Made by a program: the position numbers. A stretch of DNA of 64,000 bases from Escherichia coli (GTDB lineage: Bacteria; Pseudomonadota; Gammaproteobacteria; Enterobacterales; Enterobacteriaceae), in assembly GCF_001677475.2 (NCBI RefSeq), contig NZ_CP012498.1. The stretch is one strand, 5' to 3'. Below, piece by piece: positions 27,001 to 30,000 of the stretch; position 1 is the stretch's first letter, and each line of letters opens with the position of its first letter.

Positions 27001-30000
27001 AGCAGCAGGTTGATAATATGGTCACAGAATATCGAGGCAATATCGGAGATACTCAGAACAGCATCCGCGGCGAGGAAAGTATTGTAATAGGACAGTATTC
27101 TGAACTGCAAAATCACCATAAAACAGAGGCATTATCTCAGAATGATAAATATAATGAAGAAAAATCAGCTCAGGAAGGAATACCCGGTGCTGACAGCCCA
27201 CAGGATCTTATGAACAGGGCAAAAGAGTATCAGGATAAGTATAAGCAATAATGCTGGGTTTGGGAGATGATAATGAAAAATTTAGCTCATATTGCTCTGA
27301 TAACTGTGATACAGCTCATTGCCTGTAATCTGGCTGATTGGGGGAGCGCTGAAACAGTTTTTATCCTGTGCTTTATTGTACTATGGCAGGGACTGTTTAT
27401 ATGGTTGTTTTCTCAAATACGAAAAAAACGGCATGTGTCGGATGAGTTTAAATTCAGTAAAGGCGTTTGGTATATACTGATGCCAGTATCTTCCTTATTC
27501 TCTCCGTTATTAAGCCTGATGACTTTTATCATTGGTACACTATACGAATTAAGGCGAGTTTGTGGTTGTGTAAGTGTAAGAGAATGGATGCAATCTCAGG
27601 TAAATGAAAACGCCAATGAAGAATTGCATCTGGATTTTGATGATGTGAGTTTTGATTATGTGGATTTTTATCGTACTAATCCGGCAACAGGATTAGCTAT
27701 GCATGGAGGATTTGATTCAGCAGGAAATACTTTTGGAACTTGTTGGCAGGACTATGATGATAGGCGATAAGAAAACTGTAGCTTGTAATAAAGGTAATTT
27801 GATGAAAACAAAAAAATTGATGATGGTTACCCTGGTCAGTTCCACACTGGTCCTTTCAGGGTGTGGTGCGATGAGCACAGCAATCAAGAAGCGTAATCTT
27901 GAAGTCAAAACTCAGATGAGTGAAACCATCTGGCTTGAACCCGCCAGCGAACGCACGGTATTTCTGCAGATCAAAAACACGTCTGATAAAGATATGAGTG
28001 GGCTGCAGGGCAAAATTGCTGATGCTGTGAAAGAAAAAGGGTATCAGGTGGTGACTTCTCCGGATAAAGCCTACTACTGGATTCAGGCGAATGTGCTGAA
28101 GGCCGATAAGATGGATCTGCGGGAGTCTCAGGGATGGCTGAACCGTGGTTATGAAGGCGCAGCTGTTGGTGCAGCATTAGGTGCCGGTATTACCGGATAT
28201 AACTCCAATTCTGCCGGTGCCACACTCGGTGTAGGCCTTGCTGCTGGTCTGGTGGGTATGGCTGCAGATGCAATGGTGGAAGATGTGAACTATACCATGA
28301 TCACGGATGTGCAGATTGCAGAGCGTACTAAGGCAACGGTGACAACGGATAATATTGCCGCTCTTCGTCAGGGCACATCAGGTGAGAAAATTCAGACCAG
28401 TACTGAAACGGGTAACCAGCATAAATACCAGACCCGGGTGGTCTCAAATGCGAACAAGGTTAACCTGAAATTTGAAGAGGCGAAACCTGTTCTCGAAGAC
28501 CAGTTGGCCAAATCAATTGCTAATATATTGTAATTTAGGATGAGACTGGATAAAGCTGTACCAGTCTCATATAAATTCCCTATTATGGCATTAAGGGGGT
28601 AGTCGTGTTAATCAGAAAATGTATAGTGTTATTAATTTGTTTTCTCATTCAGGGATGCATAAGTACAGAAGTATCTGAAGGAGCTTTATATAAATATAAA
28701 AATAAACATGTAAGAGAATTTTTGTCCGATCAGATAATGTATAATATTCATAATGAGAATTATAATTATATCACCCGCACTGGAGGTTCTGATACTTATT
28801 TTTTATATACTCCAGCTTTGTTTGTTGATAAACAGGTTGCAGCACCATCGGTGAATGTTGAAAACTTATGTATTATAAGCGGAGGGCAAGGTCGAATTAA
28901 GAAATTTACGGCTGATACTTTTATTGAATCAGGCTATAAAGTTGCTAAAGCCTTTCGTGATATGGGATTGTATGCTCATTTCGGAGCATATGAAGCATTC
29001 AGGGATTCTTATCAGAGTTTTGAAGAGCAAAAAGTTGCGTATAGATTTCAAACGAAAAAGCTGGATGAGCATATAAAAAGAGGTTATTTCTTTGATGACT
29101 TTTCCTGTGTTGTTAATGGAAAAACAATATGGTCGCTTTCAATTGAACCAGTCGCTGTTGATAAGGATTCATCAGATGTTGACCAGATATGGATGCTTAT
29201 GACGGTTAATAGCTGATCTTTAGGGATAAAACTAAATAGCGTCAAGAGAATATTATCCGTGGCTGGGATGACTGGCCTCCTGACTGACGCCTCGCGTTGC
29301 TCGTTGTCCAACCCCGGGAAGTAACAAAATAAATTTTGTCGCTTCCCGGCGTTTCCGAAATAAATATGAGAACACTGAACGGTTGTGCAAATTCTTTGTG
29401 CGACCGTGAAGTGTTGCCGGCGAAGCCGGGATCTTCCGGAGAAAGTCATTATGACATCAGACAATATCGCTGAATATGTTGGTGAGAATAATCAATTTAC
29501 TGAGAAGCCTGTAACTGAATCCCCCCCGGGATACAGGATAATACAGCGACCACTAAAGACTATCTGTACAGCAATAATATTGATACTGACCTTTTAGTGG
29601 TTATCGGAGGGCTTATTGTTATATTGTTTCTCATGATGCTTGTCATGTACTTTATTAATTCTCTCAGGTATAAGGAATTAACTGAAATACTGACAAAAAT
29701 ATCTTTTCCTGAGAAATCCGGGAGCAATCCGCTTAAGCCGGAAGAGGGCCGCTGTAATTTGTTGTCCCTGTGTGTGCTGGCCCCGGTATTCTGTACTCCC
29801 AAAAAGCTGGCAGAAGTCTCCAGACAGATCATCGTGACCAGTGCGCAGGAAATTGCCTGGACGCCCGGGAATAGCCGTATTGATGGTGAGCAGGAAGAAA
29901 ATATTACCTGGTCTCTGTCGTCACAGACTCATGCCGATAAATACGAGCTCATCAATAAAACGTCCCGTGTATCTCCTGACAGTGGCCACTTTTATGAACC

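Follow-up and report, generated by a model that had tools for sequence, protein, structure and literature searches.

The stretch of DNA analysed here, hereafter the window (64,000 nt of the Escherichia coli contig NZ_CP012498.1, assembly GCF_001677475.2), is an F-like, IncFII-type conjugative plasmid, in which we have characterised a short repeated module consisting of a conserved core and a hairpin, with copy A lying between traT and traD and copy B at the boundary between the transfer and replication regions. The open reading frames (ORFs) near copy A follow each other in the order traG, a traS-like gene, traT, a 203-aa lipoprotein-like ORF, a frameshifted ORF and traD (30255-32408); near copy B the order is finO (39688-40248), a staphylococcal-nuclease homologue, a frameshifted DUF2726 gene, hok/sok, repA2, CopA and repA1. 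The two copies and their parts are:

29284-29356, minus strand (the strand with the conserved fold): module copy A, supported by covariance model, alignment and folding
29284-29291, 29292-29303 and 29304-29317, plus strand: CTGACGCC, the variable segment TCGCGTTGCTCG and the core TTGTCCAACCCCGG of copy A
29314-29349 and 29350-29356, plus strand: stem-loop of copy A with its CCGG/CCGG base, followed by CGTTTCC
42117-42192, minus strand (the strand with the conserved fold): module copy B, supported by the same three means
42117-42124, 42125-42138 and 42139-42152, plus strand: CTGACGCC, the variable segment TTCGCGTTGCTCAG and the core TTGTCCAACCCCGG of copy B
42149-42184, plus strand: stem-loop of copy B, followed by CGTTTTC

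The original prediction had described two similar stretches, each with a conserved core and a hairpin and each just past a gene end, and had placed them correctly to within 1-4 nt. Aligned with each other, the copies show ~80% column identity over ~77 columns, with two 1-nt indels that both fall in the 5' part, and a repeat-family search of the window returned them in the same orientation, spaced 12,835 nt apart. Core and hairpin were confirmed in both by this alignment and by RNA fold z-scores, which amount to -4.3 (copy A) and -1.8 (copy B) on the plus strand and to -3.3 (copy A) and -4.2 (copy B) on the minus strand. The gene ends are likewise real: copy A starts 67 nt beyond the end of the 203-aa ORF and copy B overlaps the stop of the DUF2726 gene. 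Similarity by chance was rejected on the grounds of dinucleotide shuffles (a 25-nt core pattern had no match in 100 of them), of the invariant 14-mer CCGGGGTTGGACAA, which only copies A and B match within the window, and of the repeat search. A covariance model built from 30 variants and run with its filters off matched the same two copies and no third one in the 64 kb. Regarded as a possible trans-acting seed, the core has no complementary target in the window.

For the anatomy of the module, 132 instances representing 40 distinct sequences were gathered from an exact-pattern scan (one genome per species), a metagenome scan and plasmid records. Across the 40 sequences the unit measures 71-76 nt and its ends are sharp. 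On the plus strand it is composed of CTGACGCC, 12-14 variable nt, the near-invariant TTGTCCAACCCCGG, the stem-loop and CGTTT(C/T); the variable nucleotides pair with GACGC(C) as a small hairpin in most variants, and the main stem of ~16-19 bp has a CCGG/CCGG base that never varies and an inner part that depends on the lineage. Read on the minus strand, (G/A)AAACG comes first; it is followed by the 16-bp hairpin on its CCGG base, by the invariant GGTTGGACAA and by a second, short hairpin, which in most variants is GACGC(C)/(G)GCGTC, before the unit closes with GGCGTCAG.

Based on a compensatory test (alignment A3 with 30 distinct variants, 500 shuffles and slid controls), the stem has been kept paired on the minus strand. 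There, 96.9% of the stem cells are paired and double changes occur at six pairs; covariation scores 0.327, versus 0.179 in the shuffles, none of the 500 reached 0.327, and every slid control scored lower. The same pairs are canonical in 96.9% of cases on the minus strand as against 84.1% on the plus strand, and they include 69 G·U pairs on the former and 4 on the latter (when each variant was folded separately, G·U pairs on the minus strand numbered 70, as against one A·C). At stem positions 5, 6 and 7 the minus-strand states are GC, GU or AU only, which is the classical compensatory path, and combinations of position and family with a wobble number 12 on the minus versus 1-2 on the plus strand (binomial p = 0.003-0.013). 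Copy B of the window has all 16 bp of its stem paired on the minus strand, three of them as G·U/G·T. The minus-strand hairpin also surpasses its plus-strand counterpart in stability in 39 of 40 variants; with RNA parameters the difference averages 8 kcal/mol, and with DNA parameters the values are about -19 (minus) versus -15 kcal/mol (plus).

Two other causes of such an asymmetry were considered. A regional mutation bias was rejected, since the module and the DNA around it are skewed in opposite directions: GC skew on the plus strand is +0.07 to +0.14 in the tra region and -0.18 to -0.29 in the C-rich module. Compositional selection, as for a C-rich Rho-utilisation (rut) site, is unlikely as the sole cause, because stem positions 5-7 never show transversion states; G·U pairs are moreover almost absent from the plus strand, although a plus-strand RNA hairpin should tolerate them. 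From the compensatory changes, the one-sided wobbles, the stability and the contrast in skew we infer that pairing is maintained on the minus strand.

Which strand is transferred during conjugation can be read from the origin of transfer:

3780-3811, minus strand: oriT nic region, GCAAAAACTTGTTTTTGC-GTGGGGTGT/GGTGC (the slash marks the nick), matching the F-type nic sequence

The F-type nic itself (GTGGGGTGT/GGTGC) occupies 3780-3791 of the minus strand and adjoins the oriT hairpin. TraI nicks the T-strand and remains bound to its 5' end (PMC9849209), and together with the strand of the nic this identifies the minus strand of the window as the transferred T-strand. The two copies are best described as paralogous members of a non-coding, orientation-fixed, conserved cis-element of F-like/IncFII plasmids, and the comparison of variants best supports an element whose fold is selected on the transferred strand.

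The distribution of the module agrees with a plasmid element. It is restricted to F-like plasmids, most of which have it, and is nearly plasmid-only: 3383 of 5426 complete E. coli genomes (~62%) carry it, at 5153 plasmid versus 48 chromosomal places, more than 5000 plasmid records match each copy, typically at two places per record, and the exact-pattern scan through the genomes of 100,044 species returned 10 loci, all on F-plasmid-like contigs. The last figure and the 48 chromosomal places led us to reject a general chromosomal repeat. A known RNA family was rejected too, as Rfam gave no match at copies A and B (gathering score) or at the homologous copy in plasmid L002 (E up to 10; plasmids are cited by our locus numbers where they have to be told apart). 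No RNA or regulatory feature is annotated over the module in the complete E. coli genomes, the core sequence was not found on either strand in the literature searched, and the literature on the traT terminator, on small RNAs and on single-strand initiation (ssi) signals yielded nothing specific to the module.

Two kinds of position recur. Position A follows traT, and in typical F-like plasmids the module stands 35 nt beyond the traT stop, as in F (NC_002483, module at 89587-89659), where it comes behind a first hairpin, GGAGGC...GCCTCC; in some plasmids, this one included, a cargo ORF separates traT from the module. Position B marks where the variable region behind finO, traI or traX stops, and it directly precedes hok/sok, a PLD-family nuclease gene or repA2, the cargo upstream of it encoding DUF2726, PIN, DsbA/ScsC-like, pyocin/immunity and unknown proteins. 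The TGA inside CTGAC serves several unrelated ORFs as stop codon, and in intact DUF2726 relatives the stop is the TGA within the module's CTGACGCC. Module and tra or rep genes point the same way in all 324 module-gene comparisons. Only certain lineages use position A: in one Klebsiella IncFIIK and one Citrobacter plasmid, traT ends with different hairpins and the B copy is the only one present. In Yersinia pCD1 an IncFII replicon is present and the module was not found. Two explanations offered by the original prediction, a module common to both copies and a small repetitive element outside genes, thus hold for a discrete unit of 71-76 nt with the same sharp limits throughout, spread over thousands of F-like plasmids in two recurring kinds of position. 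The neighbours of the two copies in the window are:

27802-28533, plus strand: traT, the conserved gene upstream of the copy A slot
28605-29216, plus strand: 203-aa lipoprotein-like cargo ORF, which here separates traT from copy A
29253-29283, plus strand: remnant (...ctggcctcctga) of the traT-proximal hairpin GGAGGC...GCCTCC, which precedes copy A in F and R100-type plasmids
41531-42120, plus strand: frameshifted DUF2726 gene, its stop overlapped by copy B
42597-42894, plus strand: hok/sok locus, the nearest functional unit on the downstream side of copy B
43178-43426: repA2, after hok/sok, with CopA and repA1 next

The 203-aa ORF has a lipoprotein-type signal (...LIQGC) and no Pfam match, and the insertion of this cargo has taken the place of the left arm of the GGAGGC...GCCTCC hairpin. 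Elsewhere the slot between traT and module A holds a 98-aa gene (L071) or a gene with a related C-terminus (L009, L111), or is empty (F, L002). The ORF between module A and traD (29451-30199) is split here into 29385-29597 and 29597-30199; it is probably a pseudogene in this plasmid, because an intact 245-aa homologue, without Pfam match, exists in L002 (2682-3419), and the gene is missing from F. In Citrobacter freundii pCf.1-6 traT and traD directly flank an intact DUF2726 gene (L015, 6134-6694), whose family member in the window sits just before module B; the Citrobacter location may hint at how the module became duplicated after traT. The IncHI plasmid pHum4b (L003, 3001-3060) contains a traT 3' end with half a module, cut inside the hairpin by an IS1 end, which is a stranded F-plasmid fragment in an unrelated plasmid. 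The traI-traX spacer of a Klebsiella IncFIIK plasmid (L142, 6035-6103) contains an element with a weak and divergent likeness to the module (17.4 bits, E 0.0012); it reads CTGACGCGCC...TTGTCTGCTCCGGCAG...CTGCCGG, the TGA of its CTGAC is the traI stop codon, and given this element the module family may be older and have more members. In the window the same part of the tra region contains an extra ORF of ~143 aa at 38444-38875 between traI and traX, genes that are 20 nt apart in F.

What acts in the cell would, on the reading that we tentatively prefer at somewhat below even confidence, be the folded minus strand, that is, the T-strand as it enters the recipient as single-stranded DNA (ssDNA), with a possible role as priming signal. 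A ssDNA form is favoured over an antisense RNA because no conserved promoter accompanies the module and because the minus strand is single-stranded in conjugation; molecule and role alike are deduced from sequence features. When the plasmid is single-stranded, the hairpin would stay free of SSB, and hairpin and invariant flank could be recognised by a conserved host factor, most plausibly for the start of complementary-strand synthesis. Extension of a primer made at copy B would run across hok/sok, repA2 and repA, which are already inside the recipient, and that of a primer made at copy A across traD and traI. That the module is an unrecognised T-strand signal at which a host factor starts complementary-strand synthesis upstream of the replication-control genes and of traD/traI is, in this full form, an unlikely proposition. 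Initiation of complementary-strand synthesis on the F T-strand is described as unresolved, and hairpins have been invoked (PMC9849209; PMC10085688). A fold that is stable on the transferred strand (39/40 variants) in one fixed orientation (324/324) is what the module offers.

Among known systems, the module resembles ssi signals (Frpo/ssi, primosome assembly sites of the phiX174 type and primase sites of the G4 type) in its fold favoured on the transferred strand, its fixed orientation, its ~75 nt with two hairpins and its conserved single-stranded spacer; the likeness in size, hairpin and spacer serves as a lead only. It differs from Frpo/ssi in lying in the tra-distal part, outside the leading region, and from Frpo in a stem far too short to rebuild -35/-10 boxes, and it has neither the conserved CTG of G4-type sites nor an AAGCGG motif. 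A 139-nt direct repeat (95% identical, at 49658-49796 and 51389-51527) that we tried as a Frpo-like control was rejected, being the 5' end of IS3-family elements (orfA MTKTVSTSKKPRKQHSPEF...) with no fold; it belongs to a patchwork of insertion sequence (IS) fragments between 48 and 52 kb of the window.

Several observations weigh against a priming signal on the T-strand. The module has no sequence resemblance to known priming signals, neither a conserved primase CTG nor promoter-like hexamers, a CTG after the hairpin occurring in B-type copies only (GGACAACTGAGC) and being CGA in the A and K types. Its position after stop codons and before the promoters of hok, PLD nuclease and repA2, for which insulation is needed, fits a plus-strand transcript-end element equally well, and it is retained in non-conjugative derivatives such as pO157-type plasmids. 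Tandem copies 1.1-2.5 kb apart (L026, L094) are unexpected of priming sites and could be hitch-hikers. In L140 the GTTT(C/T) tail is kept despite the loss of its AAC partner, as expected of a terminator tail. The conservation of the 14-mer and of the 3' end is overstated and their invariance partly built in, because the scan pattern fixed both the 14-mer and the CCG..GTTT end; copies derived from BLAST do show changes in the core (TTGTCTAACCCCGG in L001, AA to C(C) in L003 and L140). It should also be noted that antisense RNA and ssDNA are indistinguishable by sequence. Lastly, Jalajakumari and colleagues (1987, J Mol Biol 198:1) report, in the title of their paper, terminator activity in the F traS-traT region, distal to traT. 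Explanations other than the T-strand, a plus-strand transcript, an antisense RNA or a recombination site seem very improbable to us.

The original prediction had suggested that both copies could be terminators, and this holds by position, not by sequence. A simple terminator scan with a threshold of 5 or more T in 8 picks up neither copy. Our own implementation of a hairpin-energy and U-tail discriminant in the style of d'Aubenton-Carafa, applied to 44 variants (134 instances), was positive on the plus strand for three variants (7 instances) and on the minus strand for one. The G+C-rich stem-loop is there, with its invariant CCGG/CCGG base; the U-tract behind the plus-strand stem is only 3-4 nt long (CGUUU(C/U)) and not a U-rich one, in common variants 2-3 A·C mismatches interrupt the stem on the plus strand (-13.6 to -16 kcal/mol), and the wobbles lie opposite the mRNA strand instead of on it. 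By these features the module is not a canonical intrinsic terminator, and a role beyond that of a plain stop signal for transcription is probable, because its hairpin has evolved to be paired on the transferred strand and not on the mRNA strand.

A plus-strand role nonetheless has to be taken seriously. The module may act as RNA at a weak or leaky transcript 3' end, whether by terminating transcription (intrinsically or with the help of a factor), by stabilising the mRNA through its hairpin or by insulating. It would then close the transcripts of traT and of the tra-distal cargo and keep read-through away from the promoters of hok, of the PLD nuclease and of repA2-repA, and copies A and B would be a duplicated terminator cassette. 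We consider this possible, if on the unlikely side, and it may coexist with a T-strand role. The module always stands at the 3' end of co-oriented genes, often with their stop codon inside CTGAC, and has hok/sok, the PLD nuclease gene or repA2 as its immediate downstream neighbour; each gene block in an array is closed by a module copy of its own, the perfect-stem variants of L008 and L111 score as terminators, and the C-rich, G-poor plus strand also resembles a Rho-utilisation site. The conserved GTTT(C/T) tail suggests some plus-strand role. In the same 1987 work, part of the copy A region reportedly figures as a dyad symmetry after traT. In F the module stands 35 nt after traT, and copy A corresponds to that traT-distal dyad/terminator region; read on the plus strand, the module fails the sequence criteria of a canonical intrinsic terminator. 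Against such a function stand, beside the scan, the discriminant, the A·C mismatches of the commonest variants and the near absence of plus-strand G·U pairs, the 34 conserved nt upstream of the hairpin, which termination does not need, and the other hairpins with which IncFIIK and Citrobacter plasmids end traT in the absence of copy A. RNA-seq of pBIC1a has shown a 30-fold drop after traT; as evidence of termination at copy A this is not applicable, because its plasmid type, by proxy of L142 (Klebsiella IncFII), is without copy A. A dual role of the T-strand element is plausible, and the end-of-gene-block position together with the short T-run suggests that it may additionally form a weak, leaky plus-strand transcript boundary.

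The wobbles of the minus strand are also the classic signature of an RNA structure, so the fold could be part of antisense RNAs reading across gene ends in the tra region, for instance as a processing or stability element or as the site of an RNA chaperone (FinO, ProQ, Hfq). Rfam finds AS-traG (25148-25233), AS-traI (35973-36049) and AS-pc02 (40431-40613), all of the pHK01 type and all on the minus strand, and minus-strand transcription of the tra-distal region is thereby documented for relatives. At the module itself, a promoter was found neither inside nor beside either copy, with no promoter-like site on the adjoining minus strand, and no promoter is conserved, since the right flank, the start side of a minus transcript, differs in at least 10 contexts. 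The minus-strand hairpin is not followed by a U-tract (GGUUGGAC), only one of 44 variants scores as a terminator on that strand, and no Rfam family corresponds to it. An antisense RNA therefore appears decidedly unlikely to us.

Variable cargo around the motif in related plasmids, for which the original prediction had advised to look, was indeed found, with at least 12 distinct upstream and 10 distinct downstream flanks. In some plasmids the modules form arrays: module, a 337-aa gene and module in L026 (9936-11132); module, five ORFs and module in L094 (5206-7805); and a hairpin-less remnant (CTGACGCCTTCGCTGCGCTCAGTTGCCGAAATCCAACCCTGG), the same 337-aa gene as in L026 and an intact module in L015 (14396-15554). 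DUF2726, PIN, DsbA-like, PLD and unknown proteins are encoded around these arrays. Gene-module-gene-module arrays and variable cargo would be accounted for by a recombination site bounding mobile gene cassettes and acting on folded single strands, either attC-like or as a pseudo-nic of the relaxase. A variety of cargo genes have their exact end at CTGAC, folding favours the strand exposed in conjugation, as with the bottom strand of attC, GTCCAAC matches the R'' consensus RYYYAAC of attC, and the B-type hairpin apex AAAACTTGCTTTTT resembles the oriT hairpin that adjoins nic. The junctions, however, are not at one nucleotide: breakpoints lie near the module and never within it, deleted DUF2726 genes have left 7-16 nt of their 3' end beside it (L078, L097, L119), and the right-hand breakpoint of L039 and L094 is ~27 nt past it. 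Since breakpoints stop short on both sides and the stem shows compensation, the unit seems to be under purifying selection without a fixed recombination point, and the recombination or insertion scars proposed by the original prediction are not supported by this comparison.

The attC candidate is not supported in detail either: GTCCAAC fits R'', the 3' box GTTTC(C/T) fails R' (consensus GTTRRRY versus GTTTCC), only AAC and GTT can pair, and no integrase gene was seen next to the arrays. Integron attC sites are thus similar in their place at the 3' end of variable genes, in their arrays and in the favoured strand, and different in their R'/R'' complementarity, their fixed junctions and their integrase. 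As for a relaxase site, GGGGTTGG aligns with GGGGTGT/GG only with a gap, and the covariance model hit at oriT (10.4 bits, E 0.43) is not significant; the module flank appears unchanged in F-like plasmids of E. coli, Klebsiella and Citrobacter, groups which are expected, though only expected, to differ in relaxase specificity. The oriT hairpin GCAAAAACTTGTTTTTGC (3794-3811) and the B-type apex as it reads on the T-strand (GGGGAAAACTTGCTTTTTCCC, 42153-42180) look alike and are both followed by a GGGGT..TGG run, a similarity that is not significant. A recombination site is, all in all, a highly improbable explanation.

Compared with the chromosomal repeats REP/BIME and ERIC, the module is likewise a short, imperfectly palindromic unit that is repeated after genes and able to protect or end transcripts. 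It differs in being plasmid-specific, with 1-3 copies per plasmid and few chromosomal places (48 in 5426 genomes), in having a single orientation where REP/BIME elements occur in many chromosomal copies and both orientations, and in its long, conserved, non-palindromic 5' part. As far as we found, the second copy at the tra/rep boundary, the limits of the unit, its spread, the arrays and the strand-biased evolution of the stem are without an earlier description.

In Enterobacteriaceae, resistance and virulence genes travel mainly on F-like plasmids. On either the T-strand or the plus-strand reading, the module is a landmark for annotating two cargo slots of these plasmids, from traT to module A and from finO to module B. 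If it is a leaky transcript boundary, it would be an insulator between transfer or cargo genes and copy-number control, and would explain the places at which cargo is inserted. If it acts on the T-strand, it would be the first conserved structural signal of the T-strand to be described outside the leading region and would give a handle on where and how complementary-strand synthesis starts in the recipient; as a priming site, it would bear on how the incoming strand is converted to double-stranded DNA outside the leading region.

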